From an uncultured Pseudomonadota bacterium (GTDB lineage: Bacteria > Myxococcota_A > UBA796 > SXON01): DNA of 64,000 nucleotides. The position numbers were made by a program, and so were the translations under genes. Location of the stretch: NCBI GenBank assembly GCA_903900265.1, contig CAIUMM010000015.1, forward strand, positions 93,438 to 157,437, given 5' to 3'. The notes below the pieces were generated by a model, which saw nothing but the letters and a program-made list of their open reading frames with translations, was not told where the DNA came from and did no database searches. How positions within the stretch are numbered: position 1 is the first letter of the stretch; each line of letters begins with the position of its first letter. This document shows, piece after piece, positions 36,437 through 57,628 of this stretch.

Positions 36437-36602
36437 GAGAGGCTCCTGTAGAGGGTCCGCGAAGGGTATCGTGCCGCTGATCACACCGCCGCTGCGCTCC
36501 GGTCGGTCGTTACGGGATCGTGGCCGCCGGCTCGGGGAGCAGTACGGCGGAATCTATGCGCGTCGGTGACGCCGTGGGGAGATGGGGATACAGCATCCCA
36601 AT

Positions 36603-37541
36603 ATGCGTTTGCGCGGCGTTCTCTCCGTTGCTCCGACCCGCCCAGCGGCGGGCTTGGCGTTCTTCGTGTGCGTCGCGGGCTCGGCGTGCGACCGGACTCC
36701 GGAAGTCCCACCCGCGTCGTCCCCGTCGCCCCCGTCGGCCGCGCAGGCGGGCGCAGCTTCTCCCGCTCCTCCCGCTCACTTGACTTCGTTTGGGTACGAC
36801 CTCGTGCGGGTGGCCGCCGGTACCTACTCCATCGGCAGCCCTCCGGACGAGCCCGGCCGCCGCGCCGACGAGATCCAGCACTCGGTCACGCTCTCCCAGG
36901 GGCTCCTCATCGGCACCACCGAGCTGACGCAGGCGCAGTACCAGTCCGTGCAGAAAGACAACCCCGCAGCTCGCCCCGACTGCTACCGAGCGGGAAACGC
37001 GGCGGACCCTGCGGGCGACCAGCCGGCATACTGCGTGAGCTGGCTCGATGCCGTGGGGTTCGCCAACGCGGCAAGCATCGCCGAGGGGCTGCCGGAGTGC
37101 TACCGCATCGATGGTGTCACGGTCCTCTGGCCGGATTCCGCGTGTATCGGCTTCCGCCTTCCCACCGAGGCCGAGTGGGAGGTCGCCGCGCGCGCCGGCT
37201 CGCACGCCCCGTTCAGCGGGGCTGACACGATCGAGCCCGTGGGTTGGTTCGCCGGCAACAGCGGCGGCGCCAGCCACCCGGTCGGGCAGCTCGCTCCCAA
37301 CCCGCTTGGCCTGTACGACATGAGCGGCAACGTCTGGGAGTGGACCTGGGACATCTACGACGACGACCCCTACGGCTCCGACACGGATCCGCAGGGCGCG
37401 TTGGACGGCCCGGTCCGCTCGGTGCGGGGCGGTTCGTACCTCTACGCCTCGGCGTACGCACGCACGGCCGCGCGGGGGCGCAGCAGCCCCCAGGTCCGGT
37501 CGGACACCATCGGCGTCCGCCTCGTGCGCACCCTGCCCTGA
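36603..37541 (+). CDS. formylglycine-generating enzyme (FGE/SUMF1) family protein, lipoprotein-like
   Basis: Start trimmed to MRLRGVL...VAGSAC. PAYCVSWLDAVGFAN, FRLPTEAEWEVAARAG, YDMSGNVWEWTWD and RGGSY blocks are present. Confidence 0.9.
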   Translation: MRLRGVLSVAPTRPAAGLAFFVCVAGSACDRTPEVPPASSPSPPSAAQAGAASPAPPAHLTSFGYDLVRVAAGTYSIGSPPDEPGRRADEIQHSVTLSQGLLIGTTELTQAQYQSVQKDNPAARPDCYRAGNAADPAGDQPAYCVSWLDAVGFANAASIAEGLPECYRIDGVTVLWPDSACIGFRLPTEAEWEVAARAGSHAPFSGADTIEPVGWFAGNSGGASHPVGQLAPNPLGLYDMSGNVWEWTWDIYDDDPYGSDTDPQGALDGPVRSVRGGSYLYASAYARTAARGRSSPQVRSDTIGVRLVRTLP

Positions 37542-45240: not shown

Positions 45241-46509
45241 TCAGGCGATCGGCAGGGTCTCGCCTCCGTAGGTGCAGGACCACACGCCGTCCGTCTGCGA
45301 GAACGATGCATCGAGCCCGGACTCGGTGGAGGTGGTGACCACGATGATTCGGCAGCCGCGCGCCGGAAGCCGCCATGCGTCCAGCGGCGTGTCGAACGCC
45401 GGCACCACCACGATGACGGCCGGCCGAGCCCCGCTGGTGAGCCGCCCCGCGAGCGCCTCGATCTGCTCACGCCCGTCGGACGAGCGGAACACGCTCAACC
45501 CGCGCACCGACGGCACCGGCTCCGAGTTGGCCACCGCGACGACCACCGGATGGTAGGGCGCGAGCGCCGCGATGGTGCGCGCCACCAGCGCCGCCCGGTC
45601 CGGCCTCGCCACACCCCACACCTGCGCCGCCGTGTCGACCCCGGGGGTGCCCGCGCCGAACAGACCGGCGCCTGCCACCCGAAGCGCGTCGTAGTCGAAG
45701 GGGTCCGCGCCCGTATCGTCGGCGGTTCGGCGGAAAAGCAGCACGCCGATGCCCACCAGCGCCATGCCTGCCACAGCTAACGCCGCAAACACGATGGAGG
45801 AGGTCTTGGAGCGGGGACCGGTGGGCAGGTCGAGCTCCGGCACCGACGAGGCCGAGCCCATCATGCCCGGCCCGCCCGTCATGCCCGTCATGCCCGCGCC
45901 GCCCGTCATGCCGGGACCGCCCGTCATGCCGGGACCGCCCGTCATGCCGGGGCCGCCTGTCATGCCCGCGCCACCCATCATGCCCGCGCCGCCCGTCATG
46001 CCCGCGCCGCCCGTCATGCCCGCGCCGCCCGTCATGCCCGCGCCGCCCATCATGCCCTTGCCCGCATCTCCGACCTTAGCCTCGGCAGTGATGACCCCGT
46101 CGGTCCAGCGGATGGCAAGCAGGCGGCGCTCCTCTGACGCGCTCCACTTGACCGGAGGGGCGTCCGCGGATTTGCCGTCTACCTTCATGGAGATGGTGAC
46201 GCCGTCCCCTTCGACGGGGATGAGCGCGCCGAACTCGCTGTCAGCCGGCTTGGTGTCGGGTTCCTTCCCGTCGTCGTGCAGTTCGACCTCGGTCAGGCTG
46301 CCGTCCAACTTCTGCACCACGATCGTGACCTTGGAGCCGCCCTCCACGAGGGCGCGCACGACGGCTAACTTCGGCAGGGACGCAGCCGGCGCCGCGCCAG
46401 AAGCCCCGGCCGGGGCCGCGGTGGACGGCGCCGGGGTGGCAGGCGCCGCCTCGGCGGTGTTCGGCGCCTGCGCGAGCGCCAGACCGAAAATGCCTGCAAA
46501 GATGAGCAT
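45241..46509 (-). CDS. single-pass membrane protein with (G-M-T/M-G-G-A/P)n Met/Gly repeat
   Basis: Signal-like MLIFAGIFGLALAQA. An exported domain carries VELHDDGKEPDTKPADSEF. About 11 hexapeptide repeats follow, then the TM helix IVFAALAVAGMALVGIGVLLF and a cytoplasmic domain of about 190 aa. Confidence 0.65.
   Translation of the reverse strand: MLIFAGIFGLALAQAPNTAEAAPATPAPSTAAPAGASGAAPAASLPKLAVVRALVEGGSKVTIVVQKLDGSLTEVELHDDGKEPDTKPADSEFGALIPVEGDGVTISMKVDGKSADAPPVKWSASEERRLLAIRWTDGVITAEAKVGDAGKGMMGGAGMTGGAGMTGGAGMTGGAGMMGGAGMTGGPGMTGGPGMTGGPGMTGGAGMTGMTGGPGMMGSASSVPELDLPTGPRSKTSSIVFAALAVAGMALVGIGVLLFRRTADDTGADPFDYDALRVAGAGLFGAGTPGVDTAAQVWGVARPDRAALVARTIAALAPYHPVVVAVANSEPVPSVRGLSVFRSSDGREQIEALAGRLTSGARPAVIVVVPAFDTPLDAWRLPARGCRIIVVTTSTESGLDASFSQTDGVWSCTYGGETLPIA
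45858..46062 (-). repeat. 18-bp coding tandem repeat (CATGCCCGCGCCGCCCGT-type units)
   Basis: Repeated ..GTCATGCC(C/G)G(C/G)(G/A)CC(G/A)CCC.. units are visible from about 45860 to about 46060. Confidence 0.9.
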
Positions 46510-46552
46510 ACCGCCTCCAGCCGTGAACTAACACGTTCTGTACCCGCTGGTA

Positions 46553-47806
46553 TTACACCAGCAGCGCACCAATGGGCTCGCCAGCCTCCACCGACACGAA
46601 CTCCGCCGGATCCACGTCCGCGAGCGCCAGCAGCGTGGCCCCCACGTGACCGGGCAGCAGCGACGCGCCGCCGTCCGCGACCTCGCCCGTGTCCAGATCG
46701 ACCGGCCGTCCGATCAAGGCGTCGTCGTAGCCGCCGATGGTGCGCCCGCCCGGAAGCCCGCCGCCCAGCAGCATGGCCGAGGTCCAGGTCCAGTGATCCT
46801 TGCCGTTGGAGTGGTTCAGCTGCGGCGTGCGCCCCATCTCCGAGAGCACCACCACCACGGTCTCGTCGAGCAGCGTGCCGCCGGCATCGCCCGACGACGA
46901 CGCGAGCCGCGTCAGCGTGGCGTCGAGCGAGCGGAACAGCTCCACGTAGAGCGCGTCCTGCAGCGAGAGGTCCGCGTGCGTGTCCCAGCGGCCGTTCCCG
47001 CCGATGCCGAACGCCACAGTGGCCGTACGGCTCAAGCGCCGCTCCAGACAGGAGCACGCGACCGACAGCGCGTCCTGCAGCTCGGAGGTGCCTCCCCGCA
47101 GCGCGTCGACCTCTGGAGCCAACGCCCTGGCCCGATCGAGGGCCAGCAACTCGGCCGACGCGAGCGTGGCGGCCTGCCCGCCCCCCCGCTGATCGGACCA
47201 CCGCTGCACCCGCCGCCGAAGCACGGCGTCCTGCAGCGCCACGACTCCGGGATCGAGAGGCGAAACTTGCAGATCCGACCCGTCCAGCGCGCTGCCGTCC
47301 AGCAGAGACGCCAGCTGGCCGCTGGCACCCAGCCGCACGTGGGCGCTGCCGTAGCGGATCGGGTAGACCGACCCTGAGATGTGCACATTGGGCATGAGCA
47401 GGGACGACGAGCCGTGCCCGGCGATGATGGACACCCAGTCGTCGGTGGAGGAGAGCGCGTCTCCTGTCATCGTCCAGCGGGTACAGACATCGTGCGCCAC
47501 CGATGGTACCTCGACCCCGTTGATGAACACCGTCTGCTCACCCCAGGCCTCCAGGAAGGACGTCACCTCGCGCCGGGAGGTCGAGGCCGTGTAGGCCAGA
47601 TCGCCCACTCGCGCTGGCTCGTCGGCGCGGAGGTGATCGACGCCGCTGCTGAACACCGGCGCGAACACCAGCGCGGGGTCCCAGCCCCCGGGGCAGAACA
47701 CGAACAGGAACTTTCGCCCGTTCACGGTGGGTCCGGCGGCGAGGCGGCGGGGCAGCAGCAGCGCGAGCGCGCCGAGACCCAGAACGGCGCGGCGGGAGGT
47801 GCGCAT
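46553..47806 (-). CDS. DUF1501-family (sulfatase-fold) protein with twin-arginine signal
   Basis: MRTSRRAVLGLGALALL Tat-like signal. GGWDP, GNGRWDTH and NGKDHWTW blocks are typical of DUF1501. Confidence 0.85.
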   Translation of the reverse strand: MRTSRRAVLGLGALALLLPRRLAAGPTVNGRKFLFVFCPGGWDPALVFAPVFSSGVDHLRADEPARVGDLAYTASTSRREVTSFLEAWGEQTVFINGVEVPSVAHDVCTRWTMTGDALSSTDDWVSIIAGHGSSSLLMPNVHISGSVYPIRYGSAHVRLGASGQLASLLDGSALDGSDLQVSPLDPGVVALQDAVLRRRVQRWSDQRGGGQAATLASAELLALDRARALAPEVDALRGGTSELQDALSVACSCLERRLSRTATVAFGIGGNGRWDTHADLSLQDALYVELFRSLDATLTRLASSSGDAGGTLLDETVVVVLSEMGRTPQLNHSNGKDHWTWTSAMLLGGGLPGGRTIGGYDDALIGRPVDLDTGEVADGGASLLPGHVGATLLALADVDPAEFVSVEAGEPIGALLV

Positions 47807-49440
47807 CAGTACGTCCAGAACGCGGGATCGCGCAGCAGCAGGGAGACCGAGCCGATCCAGGCGGTGCGGGCATCAGAGGCCTGTTCGGCCGCAGACCAGA
47901 AGTCCTGGAGCTCGGTCGCCTCCTCCGCCGTGGGAGACGCGCCGATCAGCCGTCGGTGCAGCTCCGCGAGCGCGTCCGGCAGGTCGGCGTCGGGGCGCAG
48001 CGGGTCCGCAAGATCGGTCGGGAGCAGCGTGCGGGCTTCGGGCGCCGCAGCGAGGTCGCGATCGACGCCGTAGGCCGCCGCCGCCTCCGCCACCCGCTGC
48101 ATCGCCACCGCCTGCGACGCTGAGGGCAGGCGGTTCGGGCTGCGCACCGACACGCCGTCCACCCCACCGAGCAGCACGCGGAACCCCAGAGCGTCGCTGT
48201 CGAGCAGGTCCCAGCCGTCCTGGGTCCAACGGAAGCCGGTCAGATCGGCCAGCACGCTGGATAGCGTGGCGGGAGACATCACGCGTACGGTGACCGCGCC
48301 GTCGTCGCGTACGGTGACCGCGCCGTCGTCACGCACGCATGGCGTCGGCGAGCCCGCTCGGTAGGCGGGCGTGGCGAGCACGCCCCGCATTAGCGCGCGG
48401 TAGCGATGATCCCCGGCGGCGAACGTGTCTTGCAGGTCGACCAGCGTGGCAAACTCGTCGTAGTCGGGCTCGCGGCCCCAGAGCCGGGCCGCGGTGCGGC
48501 GCACCGCGCAGGCCTCGAAGCGCGGGTCCGCGGCGACCAGCGGCCCTAACTGCGCCACCGCGTCGATCGGGGTGCCGTACCACCCCGGAGAGGTCTCGAT
48601 CATGCGCTCACCTAGGCGCTCCCGCTCGGGGTGGTACCGGGTCAGCTCGTGCGCGTCCTTGTCCTGAAACGGGTAGAACCCGAACAGCGTGGACGCGATC
48701 GGGTCCAGCGATGCGTGGCAGGCGACACAGCCCGGCTCCGTTTGTACCGCGTTTTCGATCGCATCGTCGGTGGTCGAATCTATCGCGACGAAGTGGACCG
48801 GGCGGGCCAGGAAGTCCTGACAGAGCATCAGCCGGGCGATGGTGTTGGCGCGGCCGCGGTTGTAGTTGAACAGCGTGCTCGGAAAGCGCAGCCACAGCCC
48901 CGAGGTCATCAGCACGCCGCCCGCAGGGCGCCCATCGGTGTAGCGCGCCTCGCGCCAGCCCTGCCCGTCCGGGGCGGTGAACGCGAGCGGCACCAAGCTG
49001 GCCAGATCGTCGTTCGCCATCGTCCAGTCCACCGTGACGGTGTCGGACCAGGGACGGTCCTCGGCGGCCACGCGGGCGAGAATGCGCGCCGGCTCGTCGT
49101 CGAACGCCCGCGAGAAGTCCGCTGCGTTTAGGTCGGAGCCCAAGTCGGAGCCGAAGGACTCCGCGTCTACGCGGAGCTCATCCACCCGCAGCGCCCAGTC
49201 CTCCGCGAACGCGTCCACCAGATGGGACTCGAAGGCCGGGCTCGCCAGCCACTCCTCCCGCAGCCGGTCCACCTCCACGGCTCCCTGCTCCGCGCGCTCC
49301 AGCTCCTCGACCGACGGAACCACGCCCCGCACGTCGATGCTGATCCGGCGCGCCAGCGCCGCGCCCTCGAGCGGCACCGTGAGCTCAACGACCGACGGGG
49401 CCGACGGCTCCGCACAGGCCAGCAGCAGCAGCACAATCAC
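47806..49440 (-). CDS. large exported CxxCH-containing protein (planctomycete DUF1588/DUF1592-like partner of DUF1501)
   Basis: Start trimmed to GTG 49440 (VIVLLLLAC lipobox-like), overlapping the upstream stop as GTGA. Contains the CVACHASLDPIASTLFGFYPF heme-c-type motif. The stop shares a base with the DUF1501 ATG. Confidence 0.7.
   Translation of the reverse strand: MIVLLLLACAEPSAPSVVELTVPLEGAALARRISIDVRGVVPSVEELERAEQGAVEVDRLREEWLASPAFESHLVDAFAEDWALRVDELRVDAESFGSDLGSDLNAADFSRAFDDEPARILARVAAEDRPWSDTVTVDWTMANDDLASLVPLAFTAPDGQGWREARYTDGRPAGGVLMTSGLWLRFPSTLFNYNRGRANTIARLMLCQDFLARPVHFVAIDSTTDDAIENAVQTEPGCVACHASLDPIASTLFGFYPFQDKDAHELTRYHPERERLGERMIETSPGWYGTPIDAVAQLGPLVAADPRFEACAVRRTAARLWGREPDYDEFATLVDLQDTFAAGDHRYRALMRGVLATPAYRAGSPTPCVRDDGAVTVRDDGAVTVRVMSPATLSSVLADLTGFRWTQDGWDLLDSDALGFRVLLGGVDGVSVRSPNRLPSASQAVAMQRVAEAAAAYGVDRDLAAAPEARTLLPTDLADPLRPDADLPDALAELHRRLIGASPTAEEATELQDFWSAAEQASDARTAWIGSVSLLLRDPAFWTY
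48283..48330 (-). repeat. perfect 24-bp in-frame tandem duplication
   Basis: GCGTACGGTGACCGCGCCGTCGTC x2, encoding ..VRDDGAVT VRDDGAVT.. Confidence 0.95.
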
Positions 49441-50315
49441 TGCGCCCCCCAGCTCTGCGCGAACGACGAGGTCAGGCGGTCGCGCACCACGCCGCCGATG
49501 CAGGTCTCGCCGCGTACGTCGTCGCCCCACGCGACCGTGCCGCAGCCGCTGCAGTCGTCGTCGAACGCCACGGTCCACCAGCCCGATCCCGGGTCCCGGA
49601 GCTGGAGCTGGCCCGTGGGCCCGTCGCCGCACGATGGGTCCAGCGTGATGCCCGTCATGTCCAGCTGTACGTCGCCGCTGGCCAGGGGGCCCTCGAAGGT
49701 GCCCTGCAGCCCGCCGGCCTGGGAACCGAAGCGCCCCTGCCAGAGCCCGCCGGCGCTGACGCCGTTGGCCAGCGGCCCGTCTTCGCCCTCGTCCAAGAAG
49801 GTTCCGTCCAGCTCGAGGTAGAAGCTGTCGTCGGACGGATCGGTGCCGAGGATCGAGATCACCTGCCCGCCGCCCTCGATCCGGCCGCCATCCGCGCGGG
49901 TGCCGGCGAACGAGAGCACGAGCCAGGCCCACTGCATCTCCTTGCCGCCGGCCCCTGGAATGTGCCCGTAGGTCGTTACCCAGCCGCCGTCGACCGTCAG
50001 ATCGTCGACCTCGCAGTGCCCGCGCCAGTTGTTGGCCTCCTCGACGGTGGTGCGCGGGTCGGAGGTGAACGCGGACGGACAGCCCTCGCCCCCGGCCGAC
50101 AGCGCGTCTACGAGCCCGAAGAACCACTCCCGCACCGCGAGCGGATGCACCAGCCCCTCGTCCAGCCCGGACGTCACCGTCTGGTCGATGTCGTCGACCG
50201 AGGTGCCCGGCTCCACCGCGGGCGCCGACCAGTCGATGCCGGGCGCACACGGAACCGCCGGCGCTGCGTCTTCTGGCACCGCGACGCAGGCCAACGCCAG
50301 AAGCCACGCCACCAC
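49437..50315 (-). CDS. hypothetical lipoprotein
   Basis: Start trimmed to GTG 50315, one base after the upstream TAG. VVAWLLALAC lipobox. No family recognised. Confidence 0.5.
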   Translation of the reverse strand: MVAWLLALACVAVPEDAAPAVPCAPGIDWSAPAVEPGTSVDDIDQTVTSGLDEGLVHPLAVREWFFGLVDALSAGGEGCPSAFTSDPRTTVEEANNWRGHCEVDDLTVDGGWVTTYGHIPGAGGKEMQWAWLVLSFAGTRADGGRIEGGGQVISILGTDPSDDSFYLELDGTFLDEGEDGPLANGVSAGGLWQGRFGSQAGGLQGTFEGPLASGDVQLDMTGITLDPSCGDGPTGQLQLRDPGSGWWTVAFDDDCSGCGTVAWGDDVRGETCIGGVVRDRLTSSFAQSWGAQ

Positions 50316-50316
50316 G

Positions 50317-50649
50317 CTACAACCCGCACTGCAAGAAGGTGTCCAGCCGGGATAGGTCGTCGTCTGGCACACCCCCGCCTACCGGCATGTCCTGCTGTTC
50401 GAGCACCCGCACCCGCACCCGCGCGGCAAAGGCCCGCACGTCCGCCAGCGTGTCGAAGTCCACGCCATCAGGCGCGCCGTGCCGGTCCGCAGTGGTCGAC
50501 GAGTGGCAGGTGCGGCAATAGCCGCCGAAGAAGCCCGCCCCCCAGTCCTGCCACGTCACCCGTTCCTCGGCGCACGGGTCCGCGCTGTCCGAGCCGGGCG
50601 ACGCGCACGCGATGGCGAACAGAAGCAGCACTTGGTTACCATAGCACAA
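50317..50649 (-). CDS. small c-type cytochrome-like lipoprotein
   Basis: 110 aa (start could be GTG 50631). Lipobox LLFAIAC. CRTCH heme-binding motif, with a downstream DMPVGG as a possible Met ligand. Confidence 0.65.
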   Translation of the reverse strand: MCYGNQVLLLFAIACASPGSDSADPCAEERVTWQDWGAGFFGGYCRTCHSSTTADRHGAPDGVDFDTLADVRAFAARVRVRVLEQQDMPVGGGVPDDDLSRLDTFLQCGL

Positions 50650-50655
50650 CGCCGG

Positions 50656-52248
50656 TCACGGCGCGGCGCCCTCGCCGGGCGCATGGCGGCTTGCAGACGT
50701 CGGATCGACGAGACCCCAGTACCCCTGTCGCCGCAGCGCCTCGACCTCCGCCCCCGACAGCGGCTGCCCGACCGTACCGGCCACGGCCCGTGCCCGCTCG
50801 TCGAGGGTACGCAGCAGGGGCGGGAGCAGGGCGGCCGCGTCCTGCGGCGCCACGTCCACGAGGTTCCGCCTCTCACCGGGGTCGGCCCCCAAGTCGTAGT
50901 ACTCGACCAACACCGACCCGCGCCCGCCGAGCTCACCGCCTCCCATCATCGCGCAGTCGGGCAGGACGAGGTCGGTCAGGCCCTGTGCCTGCAGGAAGTC
51001 GGGGAGCGTGACATGTACCTGGTTCAGGCCTCCGGCTGGGAACCACTCGTCTCCGTCTTCCTGTTGGCGCAGCACCAACTTGCGCCCTCCCCCCGCCCGC
51101 CATGCCACGTGGCACGGGCTCGTCATCGCATAGACCGGGCCTTCGGTGTACGCGCCGGCTGAGAGCCCCAACAATGGCAGCAGCGACTGCCCGACCATGT
51201 CCTGCGCGCGCGGAACGCCGGCGCGCTCCAGTAGGGTCGGCGCCAGATCGGTGTACTGCACCACCGTGGACAGCTCCTGCCCCGACATCTGCGCGCGCGG
51301 GTCGTAGACGATCAGCGGCACGCGGATGGTGCTGTCGTACAGCAGTCCGTGCGCCACGTTCGCGTGCTCGAAGAAGTCGTCCCCGTGATCGGAGGTGACG
51401 ACGACGACCGTGTCGTCCGCCAGCCCGTCCTCTTCAAGCCGGTCGAGGATGGTCCCCACCGCCGCGTCGTAGTACCCCACCATGCGGTCGTAGTGGCGCC
51501 GGATGGCCTCCTGCGCGGCGGCCTCTCCCTGGGTGGCCGAAAGGTGCGCGTAGACGCTCGAGTAGAGCAGGTCCTTCTCGGAGGCCGTTGGCGGGGGAAA
51601 GCCCTCGGCGACGTCCTCTCGGTTGTACAGGTAGGTGTGGTGCATGTTGGCGTCGTGTACCAACGCGAAGAACGGCGTGGGCGCGCGGTCGAGAAAGGTC
51701 AGCACGTCCTCGGTGGGCGGGTCGGGTATGGGCCCCGAAGCGGGCGGCGTTCGTACATAGACGTGTTGGAACCGCGCGCTGAACGGTGAACTGCCGGCCA
51801 CGCCGTAGCCGAAGAACGCGGCGGTGGAGTACCCGTAGTAGCCGAGGATCTCCGGCATCAGGTGGGCCGAGGCCGGAAACCAGGGCACGCTGCGCCAGTT
51901 GGCCCGGGCCGGACTCGGCAGCATGCCGGAGAGCAGCGACGACAGCGCGGGCAGCGTCCAACCGGAGTGGCTGAAGGCGTTCGTGAACCGGACGCCGCGA
52001 CGGGCCAGCGCATCTATATTCGGGGTGTTGGACACGCCGTCACGCACCACGCCGATGTGGTCCCACGAGAGCACGTCGATGTCGATCACCAGGAAGTTGG
52101 GGCCACGCGCCGCGCTGTCGTCCGACGCTGAAAGCTCCAGCGCGATCACGGCGCACGCTCCGACAAGCACCACGCTCGCGCCTACGAGCGCGAGGAGCCG
52201 GTTGCGCATGGGGCGTTTCGGAGCCATCGTCGTCGGGGACAATACCAC
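50656..52248 (-). CDS. sulfatase-fold (alkaline-phosphatase superfamily) hydrolase/transferase, Thr-type active site
   Basis: TM anchor LLALVGASVVLVGACAVIAL. FLVIDIDVLSWDH, and GWTLPALSSLLSG where Cys-type sulfatases have C-x-P-x-R. VVVTSDHGDDF is present. Confidence 0.8.
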   Translation of the reverse strand: MVLSPTTMAPKRPMRNRLLALVGASVVLVGACAVIALELSASDDSAARGPNFLVIDIDVLSWDHIGVVRDGVSNTPNIDALARRGVRFTNAFSHSGWTLPALSSLLSGMLPSPARANWRSVPWFPASAHLMPEILGYYGYSTAAFFGYGVAGSSPFSARFQHVYVRTPPASGPIPDPPTEDVLTFLDRAPTPFFALVHDANMHHTYLYNREDVAEGFPPPTASEKDLLYSSVYAHLSATQGEAAAQEAIRRHYDRMVGYYDAAVGTILDRLEEDGLADDTVVVVTSDHGDDFFEHANVAHGLLYDSTIRVPLIVYDPRAQMSGQELSTVVQYTDLAPTLLERAGVPRAQDMVGQSLLPLLGLSAGAYTEGPVYAMTSPCHVAWRAGGGRKLVLRQQEDGDEWFPAGGLNQVHVTLPDFLQAQGLTDLVLPDCAMMGGGELGGRGSVLVEYYDLGADPGERRNLVDVAPQDAAALLPPLLRTLDERARAVAGTVGQPLSGAEVEALRRQGYWGLVDPTSASRHAPGEGAAP

Positions 52249-52330: not shown

Positions 52331-52867
52331 TCAGGGCGGCGTGGTCGGTGTGTTCGGCGGAGCTGTAGCGGGCGCAGGTCGCACGGTCGCCGGGAAGCGC
52401 AGGCCGGCGCGTGCGTAGCCTGCCTCGATGCGGTCGAGCAGCGCGGTCCCCTCCGGCGCGAGGAGCCCGGCCGCTGCCGCAGCCTCGATCTCCTCGTCCG
52501 TGGGCGCGGTCGCGTCGTGCGCGGCGCGCAGCTCCTCGACCAGAGCCTGCAGGACCTTGCGGTCGACGATGAGGTTCGGCAAATCGTCCGTATGGGGTCG
52601 CATGCGGAGGGGGGGGACGTAGGGCGCAGCGTAGACGCGGGGGTCCTGATGGGTGAGCAGCGCGACCAGCTCCGGGAGGTCCAGCGTTCCGCTTCCGTCC
52701 CGATCCACGGCGTCAAAGTCCTGGCCGCGTGCGCGCACGCGCTCGTACTCGGCGCGGTCGACCTGATGGTCTCCGTTCGTGTCCATGCGTTGCAGCGTGG
52801 GCGCCACCGCACCCTCGACGGTCCAGGTGGACTGGTAGGCCAGCAGCCACGCCAACCACAGCAGCAT
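52331..52867 (-). CDS. EF-hand calcium-binding protein (exported/anchored)
   Basis: Two canonical 12-residue loops, DTNGDHQVDRAE and DRDGSGTLDLPE. Hydrophobic N-terminus MLLWLAWLLAY. The ATG shares a base with the upstream TGA. Confidence 0.75.
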   Translation of the reverse strand: MLLWLAWLLAYQSTWTVEGAVAPTLQRMDTNGDHQVDRAEYERVRARGQDFDAVDRDGSGTLDLPELVALLTHQDPRVYAAPYVPPLRMRPHTDDLPNLIVDRKVLQALVEELRAAHDATAPTDEEIEAAAAAGLLAPEGTALLDRIEAGYARAGLRFPATVRPAPATAPPNTPTTPP

Positions 52868-54288
52868 CAGGGGGCTCCGGCATCAAAGTAGCCGTGCTCG
52901 CGCATCACCTTCTGCTGCTCCGCAGACAGCCCGTTCGCCGAGCGGGTCATCCGGCGCGGGGTGTCGCGCAGCCACGTCACGAGCTCGCCGCGCAGCCGCT
53001 CCGCATCCGCCTCGGGTGCGTCCGACTCGAAGCCCGGACCGGGGAGCAGCGCGGTCTCGACGATCTCGGGGAGGCCGGCCGCAGCGGGCGGCGGGCCGGT
53101 GTAGGTCAGCCGGCCGGTGGCATCGGCGATGGAGTACGCGTTCATGCGCTTGCTGCCCCCGGTGACCGTGAACGCGCGCCCGGTGAAGGCCTCGCCGCGG
53201 AGCGCCGGGGCAAAGGACGCGCCGGACTGCACGGCCGGGAGGGGCGCGCCCGCCAGCTCTATCAGCGTGGGAAACACGTCCAACAGGCCCACCCGCTCGG
53301 TCACGACGCGGCCCTCGTGCTGGCGGGGCAGCTTGACCATCAGCACCACGTTCGCGGTGGCGTCGGTCACGCCGTAGCTGTGGTCGAAGACGCCGCGCTC
53401 GCCCAGCTCCTCGCCGTGGTCGGACATCACCGCCACGAGGGTGTCGTCCAGCAGGCCGCGCTGCTCCAGCACGGCCATCAGCGTGCCGAACCACGCGTCT
53501 GCGTAGCTCGCGCCGCCGTCGTACACCTTCCGGAGCTGGGCCGTGTCGGCGTCGGAGAACGCGCGTGGACGGGGCAGCGTGGTGGCGTTGAGCGCCGCCA
53601 GTCGTGCGCGTCCGGCGGTCGAGCGCGGCCGGAGCATGCTGTCGGTGGCTTCGATCGCGGCGGACCCGGGCAGCAGCGCCCCATCGGCCACGAACATCGC
53701 TGCGCTTGGCCCTGCGTCCTGCCACGGGCCCGGCTGCGTGCCGTCCGCGTACAGGTAGCCCCACGGGGTCGGGCGCTGGTACTGGTGCGCGTCGTAGCTG
53801 TGAACGAAAAGGAAGAACGGCGCGTCGGGGCGCCGGCTGTCGAGCCACGCCAGCGAAGGCGGCACCGTGTGGAAGAAAGAGCCGAACTGGGTCGGGCTTT
53901 CGTAGGTGTCGAAGCCCTTAGTCAGCCCGTACTCCGGCGCCAGCGCACCCCCGGCCACGAACGCCGCGGTCTGGTAGCCGCAGATGTGCAGCACCTCGGC
54001 CAGCGTGGGCACGCCGCGCAGATCGGGGACCTTCGAGGTGTCGAACAGCTCCATCGGGTAGCGGCCGGTGAACACAGCGGAGTGGGCCTCGGTGGTGTGC
54101 GTGGCCTGCGTGTCCGCATGCGTGAACACGGTCGCGTCAGTTGCGAAACGGTTTAGGTTCGGGGTGATGCCGTCGGTGTTGCCGTACGCGGCGAGCCGAT
54201 CGGCGCGCAGCGTGTCTAGCGACACCAACAGGATGGACGGCGGCCCGTTGGTGGCCCCGGCGCACGCGAGCAGCAGCAGCAGGGTCAT
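52867..54288 (-). CDS. sulfatase-fold hydrolase/transferase, Thr-type active site, lipoprotein
   Basis: MTLLLLLAC lipobox. ILLVSLDTLRADRL, ATHTTEAHSAVFTG in place of CxPxR, and VAVMSDHGEELGE. Confidence 0.8.
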   Translation of the reverse strand: MTLLLLLACAGATNGPPSILLVSLDTLRADRLAAYGNTDGITPNLNRFATDATVFTHADTQATHTTEAHSAVFTGRYPMELFDTSKVPDLRGVPTLAEVLHICGYQTAAFVAGGALAPEYGLTKGFDTYESPTQFGSFFHTVPPSLAWLDSRRPDAPFFLFVHSYDAHQYQRPTPWGYLYADGTQPGPWQDAGPSAAMFVADGALLPGSAAIEATDSMLRPRSTAGRARLAALNATTLPRPRAFSDADTAQLRKVYDGGASYADAWFGTLMAVLEQRGLLDDTLVAVMSDHGEELGERGVFDHSYGVTDATANVVLMVKLPRQHEGRVVTERVGLLDVFPTLIELAGAPLPAVQSGASFAPALRGEAFTGRAFTVTGGSKRMNAYSIADATGRLTYTGPPPAAAGLPEIVETALLPGPGFESDAPEADAERLRGELVTWLRDTPRRMTRSANGLSAEQQKVMREHGYFDAGAP

Positions 54289-54385: not shown

Positions 54386-55939
54386 CTACTTGGCTCGGGG
54401 GTGCGCCTCCCGGGGCGCGTCCGTCCAAGGCATCCACAGGTGCTGCTGGAGTGCGTCGACTTTTAGGGCGTTTACGCACTCCTCGCCGTCCTCGCCGTCT
54501 GGCCATTCCCGTGCCAGCGTGGGCACAGGCGTGCCGCCGGAGGCCCGCGCGTAGGCGTCATACACGCGGTTGCGGTCCATGTACGGTACCCGCCAGGGCG
54601 CGACCGGGGACAAAAACCCCGGGATCACCCCGAGCACGGCGAGCGTGAGCAGGCCGATGAGCCCGATGGACGGCTTGACCGGCCAATGTTCACCGCCCGC
54701 AGCACCGCCCGCAGCACCGCCCGCGGCTGCGATGCCGACGCCGAGCATCACCGGGAGCGCGGTCATCCCAAGCGTGAAGTACGTCGGTTGGGCGAAGGTG
54801 TGGAACACCACGTACAGGTTCAGCAGCAGCGGTATCGTCGGGGCGAACGCCGCCAGCCACGCCGAGGGACGTCGGCGGATCATCGGGGCTGCGGCTACGC
54901 TGGCAAAGGCGAGGGGGATCAGCCAGGGGGTCAGCCACGCCTCGCGGGCCGCGCGCTCGGTGGCGCCGGCGGACGCGCTTGCCGGGACCAGCGCCGCCAT
55001 GATCGCGAGCGACCTCAGCGCGTCAGGCAGAGACGCGATCGGCGACACCCCCCACGCAAAGTCTGTGGCCATCAACGTGTGGTGCTCGGGCTCGGAAAAA
55101 TCACGCACTTCTTTTAAGTAGCCGAGCGCTTGGAGCACCACTCCAGCGGGCGGGCGTCCGCCCATCACCGCAGTGTGGGCGAGGCCGGCGACCCACCAGG
55201 ACAGCGCCAGCGTCCCGAGGACACAAAGCAGCCGGGCAGGGAGCCCGCGTACAGGCCCGATCCCCGCGCTGATCCCGACCAGTCCGGCGCACCACAGTCC
55301 GACGGTGAAAAAGCGAACGTCTGCGGCGAGGATGAGCCCCGCGCCGCCGGCCCCCACAAGCAGCGCCGGCACGGTGCGCCAGCGCAGGGCTGCAGCCACC
55401 CCTGCGGCGCCGAGCACGCAGAGCGCGGTGGTCTCCGGATAGAACGATGGGCTTCGGGCCAACCACACAAAAGTTTGGTTTGCTGCGGCAAGTAGGACTG
55501 CGCACGCGCCAGCGACCCGGCCCCCGGCGATCCTCGCCCAGCTGTAGATGCCGAGGCCCATCACGCCGCCCGAGACCAGCGCCCCGCCGGTCAGCGCGCC
55601 GAGGATACCGAGCTCCCGCGTAGGGATGAGCAGCAGCAATCCAGCCAACGGCGAGTGCTTTGCGCCCCAGTCGGTCGGTACGGCGTCCCGGAGCGATCCC
55701 AGCGACCGGCAATATCCGGCGACGTCGATCTCCGAGTAGTCACCGCCGATGATGTGGTACTTGGGAAAGTGGAGTCCGGTGAGCACGGCAAAAAGGCACG
55801 CGAACGCTGCGGCGATCAGCAGCTCCAGCCCGAGCGGGGGGCTACGAACTGGTGTGGGGCTCGCGGGGTTGGGCTGGGTCCGCCGGGCCCACAGCGCGCA
55901 CAGCGCGATGGCCGTTAGCGTAGGCCACACGCTCCACAT
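54386..55939 (-). CDS. polytopic membrane protein, GT-C/ArnT-like candidate
   Basis: 517 aa with about 12 hydrophobic segments and a short soluble C-terminus. The first-loop pattern ..GGDYSEIDVAGY...KHSPLAGLLLL resembles PMT_2/ArnT proteins. Confidence 0.6.
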   Translation of the reverse strand: MWSVWPTLTAIALCALWARRTQPNPASPTPVRSPPLGLELLIAAAFACLFAVLTGLHFPKYHIIGGDYSEIDVAGYCRSLGSLRDAVPTDWGAKHSPLAGLLLLIPTRELGILGALTGGALVSGGVMGLGIYSWARIAGGRVAGACAVLLAAANQTFVWLARSPSFYPETTALCVLGAAGVAAALRWRTVPALLVGAGGAGLILAADVRFFTVGLWCAGLVGISAGIGPVRGLPARLLCVLGTLALSWWVAGLAHTAVMGGRPPAGVVLQALGYLKEVRDFSEPEHHTLMATDFAWGVSPIASLPDALRSLAIMAALVPASASAGATERAAREAWLTPWLIPLAFASVAAAPMIRRRPSAWLAAFAPTIPLLLNLYVVFHTFAQPTYFTLGMTALPVMLGVGIAAAGGAAGGAAGGEHWPVKPSIGLIGLLTLAVLGVIPGFLSPVAPWRVPYMDRNRVYDAYARASGGTPVPTLAREWPDGEDGEECVNALKVDALQQHLWMPWTDAPREAHPRAK

Positions 55940-56065: not shown

Positions 56066-57628
56066 ATGTCTCGGTCCAGAAATCCAGTCCGCGGACGGGC
56101 GCGACGCAAGCAGGCCGAGCGCATGGCTGGGCTTGCGCTGGGCTGTGTCGGCTTCGCGCTGCTTCTGTTCGGCATTGGCACGACGTTTAGCGTGGAGATA
56201 GAGTCTTTGCAGGCGGTTTTGCAGACGCTTTTGCAGACGTCTTCGGGCCCCGCTCCCAATGCGGCTCCCAAAGCGGCCCCCGCTCCGATCGTAGCGGCTG
56301 TTCCCGCCGCGCCGCCTGCTGAGCCCCCGGAGCCGGTGCTTGACCCCGATCGTCCGCCCAACGTCTTGCTGATCACGCTCTGTTCGGTGCGGCAGGATCA
56401 CGTAGGGGCCAGCGGCTACGCGAGCGCCGCCACGCCGACGCTGGACGCGCTGGCGGCCGAAGGGGTCTGGTTCAGTCACGCATGGGCTCCGGCTACCTTC
56501 ACGCTGCCGAGCCACGCGTCGATGTTCACCGGCTTGCTGCCCAGCCGCGCCGGGGTCATGGAGACGGTCGACACCATTCGACCGTCGGTGCCGACCTTGC
56601 CGGAGATCATGAAGCTGTACGGCTACCACACGGTGGCCTACGCGCCGGTCTCGAGCCGGGCGAGCTTCAGCGCCGGATACGGCTTCGAGCGCGGCTTCGA
56701 TCAGTTCATCGAAGGCGGATCAGCCGCTGCGAGCGCGAGCTTGGGGGATCAAGCCGCGCTCGACGCGATCACGACTGCGCAGCCCTACTTTGCGGTCGTG
56801 CACTTGAAGGAGGCGCACCCTCCCTACACGCCGCCGCGGGGCACCGAGGTAGATCCTCGCATCCTCGAATGGAGCACGCGTCGTGGGGGCGGGCCGGGCG
56901 CACAGAACCCGGACGATTGGATGGTCGGCCAAATGCAGGACGATCCGGCGCTCGCCAAAGCCGTCGCCGGGCTCTACGACGGCGCCCTGCACCGTGTGGA
57001 CGAGCACGTAGGCCGGATCCTCGAGTGGTTGAAGGGCCGCGGCGCGCTCGACCACACCATCGTCATCGTCGCCGGGGATCACGGGCAGGCGTTGGGAGAG
57101 GGAGGGCACATCGGGCATCAGGGCTTGTTGCAGCCTGAGGTACTCAACGTGCCGCTTTTGGTGCGCATGCCGAGCGACATGCCCGAGGCCTCGCGTGGCT
57201 TGCGGGTGGACGCCGACGTCGGGCTCGTTGACCTGCTCCCGACCATCGTGGATCTGGTGGACGCGACGCCCCCTGCCACGCTGGATGGGCGTAGCCTCGT
57301 TCCGTTGCTCGAAGGAGGGACCTTGCCGGAGCGCGGCGCGTTGGCGCAGGCGGTGGTGCAGCAGCCCGATGGGCGTGGGTTCGCGACCGAGGTCCTCGTG
57401 CACGGTCCGCTCTGGCTGAACTTCCCGATGCACGAGCAGGGCGCGTGGAGCCTGCGGCGCTTGTCGAACGGAGTTTGGGAGCCTGTTGATGCCGGATCTG
57501 CAGCATCTGTCGCGGCGCCGATGCTCGCGGAGCGCACGTTGCTCTCGGGTGTTGAAGCGCCTCCGGGAACGCCGACCGCGCTCACGGCAAAGCAAAAAGA
57601 GGAGCTTCGGCTCCAAGGCTATTGGTAG
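56066..57628 (+). CDS. sulfatase-fold hydrolase/transferase, Thr-type active site
   Basis: TM anchor LALGCVGFALLLFGI. VLLITLCSVRQDH, ATFTLPSHASMFTG in place of CxPxR, and VIVAGDHGQALGE. Confidence 0.8.
   Translation: MSRSRNPVRGRARRKQAERMAGLALGCVGFALLLFGIGTTFSVEIESLQAVLQTLLQTSSGPAPNAAPKAAPAPIVAAVPAAPPAEPPEPVLDPDRPPNVLLITLCSVRQDHVGASGYASAATPTLDALAAEGVWFSHAWAPATFTLPSHASMFTGLLPSRAGVMETVDTIRPSVPTLPEIMKLYGYHTVAYAPVSSRASFSAGYGFERGFDQFIEGGSAAASASLGDQAALDAITTAQPYFAVVHLKEAHPPYTPPRGTEVDPRILEWSTRRGGGPGAQNPDDWMVGQMQDDPALAKAVAGLYDGALHRVDEHVGRILEWLKGRGALDHTIVIVAGDHGQALGEGGHIGHQGLLQPEVLNVPLLVRMPSDMPEASRGLRVDADVGLVDLLPTIVDLVDATPPATLDGRSLVPLLEGGTLPERGALAQAVVQQPDGRGFATEVLVHGPLWLNFPMHEQGAWSLRRLSNGVWEPVDAGSAASVAAPMLAERTLLSGVEAPPGTPTALTAKQKEELRLQGYW

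Follow-up and report, generated by a model that had tools for sequence, protein, structure and literature searches.

A compact gene module for putative heme lipoproteins and a DUF1501 protein in an uncultured freshwater Myxococcota-like bacterium and its relatives

Gene modules that combine PSCyt/PSD proteins with DUF1501 or DUF1552 proteins occur in Planctomycetes, Verrucomicrobia and Lentisphaerae and have been described from sequence (Studholme 2004; Kamneva 2012, PMC3542564; He 2017, PMC5615132). In Verrucomicrobia, PSCyt2/PSD1 genes usually lie beside DUF1501 genes and PSCyt3/PSD4 genes beside DUF1552 genes (He 2017, PMC5615132). A four-gene cluster in Verrucomicrobium spinosum encodes a DUF1501 protein, a signal-peptide protein with weak PPC domains, a PSCyt1/Big_2/PSCyt2/PSD1 protein, and a PSCyt1/WD40 protein (Kamneva 2012, PMC3542564). 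No function of the PSCyt/PSD and DUF1501/DUF1552 pairs was reported in the open literature searched, which agrees with the view of an earlier note on the locus studied here that such pairs are still uncharacterised. Here we describe a module of this kind from a 64,000-nucleotide (nt) stretch, hereafter the window, of contig CAIUMM010000015.1 (assembly GCA_903900265.1), with ~70% G+C, from an uncultured bacterium placed by GTDB in Myxococcota_A. The genes, all on the minus strand, encode a putative cytochrome c lipoprotein (g1), a predicted lipoprotein of an unannotated family (g2), a larger predicted lipoprotein with a single c-type heme motif CxxCH (g3), and a DUF1501 protein (g4); a membrane protein gene (g5) follows. 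The conserved unit is very probably g2-g3-g4, joined by g1 in about half of the cases.

A search with g3 returned >250 cluster representatives. The top 120, for which identities were described, share 38–56% amino acid identity with g3 over the full length, and the window's own cluster shares 98%. The named relatives belong to metagenome-assembled genomes (MAGs) of Myxococcales, Myxococcota or 'Deltaproteobacteria'. Scanning one genome per species gave 79 loci, all in uncultured genomes and mostly from lakes. Iterative profiles of each window protein were run on the open reading frames (ORFs) of these loci, and neighbours were counted for the 68 g3 genes with enough flanking sequence. In 67 of these 68 modules g4 lies beside g3, and in 64 g2 is present, directly upstream of g3 with a median gap of 11 nt; g1 was found in 33 modules and g5 in none. 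The observed gene orders, all related by cyclic permutation, are g2-g3-g4 (26 modules), g2-g3-g4-g1 (15), g1-g2-g3-g4 (10) and g4-g1-g2-g3 (5), with median intergenic distances of -10 to +11 nt. The CxxCH motif is invariant in 33 g3 and 41 g1 relatives, and at 60+ independent loci g2, g3 and g4 are again tightly spaced, which puts the gene block beyond chance. The genes of the module are coupled in translation, are conserved together as one block and are co-inherited.

The module is also autonomous: it sits in unrelated surroundings and has multiplied within genomes. The 87 genes that directly flank related modules fall into 77 Pfam families, the commonest of which was seen 5 times, and no recurrent partner gene was found among them. 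Single genomes carry 3–5 module copies; four loci each were found in CANLGL01 and SXOM01, and the four loci of JAQXDW01 hold five modules, one locus having two. At some loci (L008, L037, L054 and L083) two or three complete modules stand side by side, in tandem or divergent, within 12–20 kilobases (kb), which indicates local duplication.

The earlier note had read positions 45241-50649 of the window as a five-gene operon for an exported redox/hydrolase complex, to which two extra lipoproteins and a possible metal-binding membrane protein had been added at this locus. Its five minus-strand genes and their junctions were confirmed on the sequence at the positions given in Table 1, and independent gene calls on public contigs with identical proteins gave the same products (110, 292, 544, 417 and 422 amino acids). 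An 833-amino-acid ORF (47806..50307) was considered as the true g3 and rejected as a high-GC read-through over g2, since homologues and public calls start at the GTG of the GTGA junction. The proposed pair of a large CxxCH protein and a Tat-type (twin-arginine translocation) DUF1501 protein also held, with a Pfam DUF1501 match at E 6e-20 and with PSD4, PSCyt3, PSD2 and PSCyt2 signatures in g3. The exported heme/DUF1501 system thus stands, and the unit of five does not: g5 is absent in 68 of 68 modules, g4 is the last gene in the closest relatives (~50% identity), and all five genes stay together only in near-identical contigs and in one 90–96% identical strain seen in a metatranscriptome. A lack of conservation of the five genes was among the outcomes that the earlier note had named as refuting its reading. 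The unit consists of three to four genes. Nor are the two lipoproteins a local extension, because their frequencies (64/68 for g2 and 33/68 for g1) make them core parts of the subfamily.

Compared with the PSCyt2/PSD1 (DUF1549/DUF1553) plus DUF1501 pairs, the module likewise encodes an exported CxxCH protein beside a DUF1501 protein with a Tat or other signal peptide, with many copies per genome and in variable context. It differs in that g3 is a compact 544-amino-acid PSD4-PSCyt3-PSD2 protein, and g4 has no adjacent gene for a PSCyt2/PSD1 protein. In addition, g3 is a predicted lipoprotein, the cytochrome g1 is a separate gene with no fused PSCyt1, a third partner, the unannotated predicted lipoprotein g2, is almost always present, and the hosts are Myxococcota-labelled freshwater genomes, not Planctomycetes–Verrucomicrobia–Chlamydiae (PVC) bacteria. 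With the 'group III' PSCyt3/PSD4/PSD2(/PSD3/PSD5) proteins that accompany DUF1552 (He 2017, PMC5615132), g3 shares the signatures PSD4 (PF07631), PSCyt3 (PF07627) with its CxxCH motif, and PSD2 (PF07624). However, its partner is DUF1501 in 44 of 44 cases and never DUF1552, a cross-pairing against the Verrucomicrobia rule; g3 is also much shorter, and a PSD5-like stretch, where detectable, is C-terminal. The four roles in the V. spinosum cluster parallel g4, g2, g3 and g1, but no Big_2, WD40, PPC or PSCyt1 domain was detected in the module proteins, which are much smaller and, for g1-g3, have predicted lipid anchors; the order of the genes also varies by cyclic permutation. Relative to these known systems, what is new here is the compact split form, the predicted lipid anchors of g1-g3, the PSCyt3-type protein with DUF1501, the partner g2, and the non-PVC lineage. 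Nothing at the locus contradicts expectations for the PSCyt/PSD and DUF1501 families.

In the g3 of the window, Pfam PSD4 (DUF1592) scores 25.6 bits, above its cut-off of 23.3, and PSCyt2 (28.7 versus 29.8), PSD2 and PSCyt3 all remain below theirs. Among 33 g3 relatives, PSCyt2 is matched by 33, PSD4 by 32, PSCyt3 by 31 and PSD2 by 29, with several of the PSD4, PSCyt3 and PSD2 matches above cut-off. The PSCyt2 match covers only the N-terminal ~60 residues of the profile (positions ~20–80 of 209), and PSD1 is matched by 5 of the 33, overlapping the PSD2 region. A DUF1800-type partner was rejected, as no such Pfam match occurs in the g3 family. The heme motif residues C238, C241 and H242 and ~50 more columns are invariant in the 33 sequences; Arg, Asp, Glu, Tyr or Trp occupies many of these columns, Y269 of the Y[HF]PERE motif being one example. 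No conserved Met was found in the same alignment. That g3 too is a predicted lipoprotein, with a nearly invariant lipobox Cys, had been missed by the earlier note.

The AlphaFold2 model of g3 is mostly helical and has a mean predicted local distance difference test score (pLDDT) of 87.8 and a predicted template modelling score (pTM) of 0.88, with only the heme loop poorly defined. A Foldseek search of this model against solved structures gave no match (best E 0.27, template modelling (TM) score <0.15), and a sequence profile search against solved structures gave a CxxCH-local match only. g3 is a compact PSD4-PSCyt3-PSD2 protein with a predicted fold that lacks a solved match. The size of g3, its ~50 invariant polar residues and the lack of a conserved Met ligand suggest that it probably has a catalytic role and does not simply carry electrons. 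The invariant Tyr in Y[HF]PERE would be the best candidate for a distal heme residue. Two in-frame tandem duplications were observed inside g3, one of 24 nt (VRDDGAVT twice) and one of 12 nt (GSDL twice), at 48282-48337 and 49132-49156. Both sit in loops variable among homologues, and the 12-nt duplication is absent in a 96% identical metatranscriptome strain.

The g4 protein matches DUF1501 (PF07394) with E 5.9e-20 and 72 bits (cut-off 27), over profile positions 174–338 only. DUF1501 is matched by all 44 g4 relatives and DUF1552 (PF07586) by none of them. Residues invariant in the 44 g4 sequences are Arg5-Arg6, GGWD43, H105, D275xH277, S322-E-M-x-R326 and H338. Of these, D43, D275, H277, E323 and H338 are candidate metal residues of an alkaline-phosphatase-superfamily site, as judged from the alignment. 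The signal peptide fits an S/T-R-R-x-F-L-K-type motif followed by a hydrophobic stretch (TSRRAVLGLGALALLL), and the Arg pair is invariant in the 44 sequences, although the Pfam TAT_signal model matches only 1 of 44 relatives. The g4 profile found no relative by sequence among solved structures. An attempt to map the g4 active site onto the sulfatase-family proteins of the window failed, as a single motif aligned.

The g1 protein of the window itself has no Pfam match above reporting thresholds. In its family (41 aligned relatives), C45, C48, H49, M88 and P89 are invariant, as are the lipobox Cys and Gly92-Gly93, and a Cys26/Cys108 pair is conserved. The family profile matches CcoP heme domains (E 6.6e-7) and, over nearly the full length, cytochrome c6 (E ~0.007), and 33 of the 41 relatives match PF13442 (Cytochrome_CBB3). 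An assignment of g1 to PSCyt1 was rejected: PF07635 gave no match, and the relatives match PF13442 instead. These motifs suggest that g1 is probably a lipid-anchored class I cytochrome c with His/Met ligation. As in class I c-type cytochromes (PF13442, CcoP, cytochrome c6), the CxxCH motif lies near the mature N-terminus and an invariant Met follows ~40 residues on; unlike them, g1 has a predicted lipid anchor and an extra conserved Cys pair and is encoded inside a DUF1501 module.

The g2 family (44 sequences aligned, 80 profile matches in the loci) gave no match in Pfam, NCBIfam or solved structures. Conserved positions in the family are the lipobox Cys, Cys79-Pro80, Cys258 and Cys272, along with a number of Gly and Trp residues. 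Word-indexed searches for g2 homologues gave one protein and then six. A model of moderate confidence (pLDDT 70.6), built on the resulting seven-sequence alignment only, predicts two N-terminal helices, ~12 antiparallel strands and a C-terminal helix, and Foldseek found no significant neighbour of it among solved structures (best E 0.075, TM score 0.22). The g2 proteins are a near-obligate partner family new to PSCyt/PSD-DUF1501 systems.

All products carry export signals, as the earlier note had proposed. Lipoprotein signals are present in g1, g2 and g3, with a lipobox Cys that is invariant or nearly so in the families (lipoboxes in Table 1), and a twin-arginine signal in g4. In the window, 8–14 residues without Lys or Arg precede the lipobox Cys in g1, g2, g3 and an upstream sulfatase-like protein (50605-50649, 50286-50315, 49414-49440 and 54262-54288). 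Equally short signals are seen across g3 homologues (MILLLLLSC, MFTLLLLAC), and the short signals are therefore seemingly a lineage trait, not a start-codon error. The heme-motif proteins g1 and g3 have signals of the general secretory (Sec) type, and a Tat signal is found on g4, which has no heme motif. Cytochrome c maturation requires Sec-type export of heme proteins, and Tat export usually marks cofactor-containing enzymes. Sulfite dehydrogenase SorAB combines a Tat-exported catalytic subunit with a Sec-exported c-type cytochrome subunit. By analogy, the module resembles SorAB in its split of labour and its export routes; unlike the SorAB enzyme, g4 is a DUF1501 protein and not a molybdoenzyme, and there is no homology.

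Taken as a whole, we find it fairly probable that g2-g3-g4 plus g1 form an autonomous, periplasm-facing heme/DUF1501 enzyme module. The four products may assemble into one membrane-tethered periplasmic complex, in which g4 would bind a small organic substrate at an ester-type group or cleave that group, and g3 would perform a coupled redox step. Where present, g1 would link g3 to the respiratory chain, and g2 could serve as a scaffold or substrate-binding subunit. This combination of redox chemistry with ester hydrolysis is a tentative proposal, possible but rather doubtful at present. The multiple copies and changing surroundings of the module point to a family of nutrient-processing enzymes, each specific to its substrate, such as was proposed for lake Verrucomicrobia (He 2017, PMC5615132).

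Several points weigh against an enzymatic module of this kind. No recognisable Ser, Thr or formylglycine nucleophile motif was found in g4, and C/S-x-P/A-x-R is absent. Its tentative assignment to the alkaline-phosphatase fold follows from the placement of DUF1501 in the alkaline-phosphatase-like clan of Pfam. When the g4 family was compared by hhalign with the local sulfatase-family proteins, only the VVVLSEMGR / VVVTSDHGD motif aligned, with a probability of 1.5%; DUF1501 is also weakly matched by one sulfatase, and both results are weak evidence on the fold. The signal peptides of g1, g2 and g3 are unusually short and have no positively charged n-region. Since g1 is missing in half of the modules, a dedicated cytochrome partner is not obligatory. 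In the transcript data, at 82% likeness, RNA depth is flat (8–11) from the convergent downstream gene through g1; with flat depth over convergent genes, the reads may be carried-over DNA and are no proof of co-transcription.

The g5 gene, downstream of g4, belongs to a family of 370–440 amino acids recovered by an exhaustive HMMER search, with a signal peptide, an N-terminal domain containing an invariant LxDxGxxPDxxxxD motif, a low-complexity linker, one transmembrane helix and a conserved cytoplasmic domain. The choice-of-anchor X model (NF041940) is matched by 15 of 23 g5 relatives at E <= 0.01, and g5 of the window reaches 19.9 bits versus a cut-off of 25. In a public contig (L002, 7560-7635) the Met/Gly repeat is two units shorter, which reflects either an in-frame copy-number polymorphism or an assembly collapse. 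The earlier note had regarded this repeat as a possible metal-binding feature. That suggestion is not sustained, as the repeat is a variable linker, Met-rich in 2 of 23 aligned members (the window protein, where it is (GMTGGA)n, and P0130) and composed of Gly, Pro, Ala or Ser in the other 21. g5 is a local neighbour specific to the lineage and lies outside the conserved module.

On the other side, the block is not isolated, a point also missed by the earlier note: a sulfatase-like gene ends 6 nt before g1, and further genes of this kind lie beyond it (Table 1). All three PF00884 proteins of the window lack the formylglycine motif C/S-x-P/A-x-R and show Thr (WTLPAL, HTTEAH, FTLPSH) where that motif would place its Cys, and in the PF00884 ORFs of related loci L010, L027, L031, L033, L054, L063 and L072 the same motif is absent, with Thr instead. 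These proteins are probably Thr-nucleophile hydrolases or transferases of the alkaline-phosphatase superfamily, going by their motifs, and not sulfatases. The EF-hand protein encoded between two of them has weak matches, well below cut-offs, to lanmodulin and XopAW-type Ca-binding models. At two related loci (L042, 12430-12993; L053, 13308-14468), weak homologues of the 517-amino-acid ORF follow closely after g4 on the opposite strand. One metatranscriptome contains a 90–96% identical strain, in which contigs cross the g2/g3 and g3/g4 junctions at 95% likeness. A contig of this strain (RNA-run X15, contig 8) carries g2 and g1, then ~1.6 kb upstream of g1 that is unlike the window (from about 50630-50700), and the sulfatase-like gene is therefore either not adjacent there or highly diverged. 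In the window this gene is probably co-transcribed with the module, but it is not a conserved partner.

Table 1. Coordinates of the module genes, their motifs and junctions, and neighbouring features in the window
Feature	Position	Strand	Description
g1	50317..50649	minus	110 amino acids; TTG start; lipobox AIAC; probable class I cytochrome c lipoprotein
g1 heme motif	50503..50517	minus	Cys45-Arg-Thr-Cys48-His49 (CRTCH); invariant in family alignment
g1/g2 junction	50313-50319	minus	TAGcGTG; g1 stop TAG 50319-50317, then g2 GTG
g2	49437..50315	minus	292 amino acids; GTG start at 50315-50313; lipobox LALAC; unannotated family
g2/g3 junction	49437..49440	minus	GTGA; g2 stop overlaps g3 start
g3	47806..49440	minus	544 amino acids; GTG start; lipobox LLAC; single c-type heme motif
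g3 heme motif	48715..48729	minus	Cys238-Val-Ala-Cys241-His242 (CVACH); followed by conserved DPxA and Y[HF]PERE
g3/g4 junction	47804-47808	minus	TGATG; g3 stop shares a base with g4 ATG
g4	46553..47806	minus	417 amino acids; ATG start; begins MRTSRRAVLGL; DUF1501; stop TAA 46555-46553
g4 twin-arginine codons	47789..47794	minus	Arg5-Arg6; signal peptide TSRRAVLGL
g5	45241..46509	minus	422 amino acids; ATG at 46509; Met/Gly repeat; single-pass membrane protein
g5 tandem repeat	45883..46057	minus	18-nt unit, 9.7 copies, 91% match; encodes the Met/Gly repeat
Sulfatase-family (PF00884) lipoprotein gene	50656..52248	minus	stop 6 nt before g1
EF-hand protein gene	52331-52867	minus	178 amino acids; between two sulfatase-like genes; ATG overlaps upstream stop (ATGA at 52867)
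Second PF00884 gene	52867-54288	minus	
517-amino-acid ORF	54386-55939	minus	no Pfam match
Third PF00884 gene	56066-57628		
FGE-sulfatase-domain gene	~36582-37541		

If all five genes formed one functional operon, g5 would be its metal-binding membrane subunit (Met-rich, Cu(I)-type) and would anchor the periplasmic complex or supply it. The gene shares the strand of g4 and follows it after 43 nt with no terminator-like site in between (a promoter/terminator scan inside g1-g5 gave no informative sites); the 90–96% identical strain retains the block of five with g5, and the regularly spaced Met of the GMTGGA unit (~10 repeats) resembles Cu(I)-binding Met motifs. We nevertheless regard this arrangement as very unlikely, given that g5 is missing from every related module with g4 ending the closest ones, that the g5-family profile matches in only 1–3 of the 79 loci and never beside g4, that the linker of its own family is Gly/Pro-rich and seldom Met-rich, and that the repeat copy number varies between samples. 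g5 also has its own strong ribosome-binding site, a GGAGG 6 bases ahead of its ATG. An extension in the upstream direction deserves more weight, although it too appears improbable: the module would be the distal part of a longer nutrient-scavenging operon (517-amino-acid ORF, sulfatase-like gene, EF-hand gene, second sulfatase-like gene, g1-g4) acting on the same sulfated or phosphorylated ester substrate. Such an operon would fit the 6 nt between the sulfatase-like gene and g1, the upstream same-strand genes that overlap or lie within ~100 nt of each other, the three PF00884 genes and the FGE-sulfatase-domain gene in the window, and the 13 sulfatase-family ORFs detected by profile search in the 79 related loci. 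Sulfatase genes also lie near PSCyt genes in lake Verrucomicrobia (He 2017, PMC5615132). Against it, sulfatase-family genes make up only 3 of the 87 immediate neighbours of related modules, the sequence upstream of g1 in the 90–96% identical strain is unlike the window, and the local 'sulfatases', with Thr and without the formylglycine motif, are probably not sulfatases.

A different question is whether the module is an enzyme at all. g3 and g4 could instead serve in binding, in uptake or in the structure of the envelope, or act as a heme-based redox sensor, and the DUF1501 fold would then be a scaffold only. The missing nucleophile motif in g4 and the lack of enzyme-like relatives of g2 and g3 by sequence or fold speak for such a role, and a membrane-associated electron-transport role, not catalysis, was proposed for the related systems (Kamneva 2012, PMC3542564). 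However, the invariant D43, H105, D275, H277, E323, R326 and H338 of g4 are typical of a metal-dependent active site. Tat export, as a rule a mark of cofactor enzymes, and the 3–5 divergent copies per genome, which fit substrate diversification, point the same way, and we give a non-enzymatic role little credence. The reading of an enzyme module composed of g2-g3-g4 plus g1 is retained. Within it, a more specific idea is rather doubtful: g3, with its predicted fold absent from solved structures, may be the catalytic redox partner of DUF1501 in an unrecognised type of periplasmic enzyme. Such an enzyme might cleave an ester or C-heteroatom bond of dissolved organic matter oxidatively and pass electrons to the respiratory chain via its own cytochrome c.

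Few uncharacterised gene pairs in Planctomycetes and Verrucomicrobia are as abundant as the PSCyt/PSD plus DUF1501/DUF1552 systems, which work from 2004 and 2012 onwards has pointed out as puzzling. The present locus and its ~80 relatives show that freshwater Myxococcota-like bacteria have multiple copies of the system too, that it can be reduced to small single-domain parts with the cytochrome and an unannotated lipoprotein as separate genes, and that a PSCyt3-type heme protein can pair with DUF1501. As the hosts are uncultured, dissection must be heterologous. The minimal conserved parts list for it is g2, g3 and g4 with or without g1, and excludes g5 and the sulfatase-like genes. If g3 is indeed the catalytic redox partner in an unrecognised type of enzyme, this compact split version would be a minimal parts list for hundreds of PSCyt/PSD-DUF1501/DUF1552 systems.

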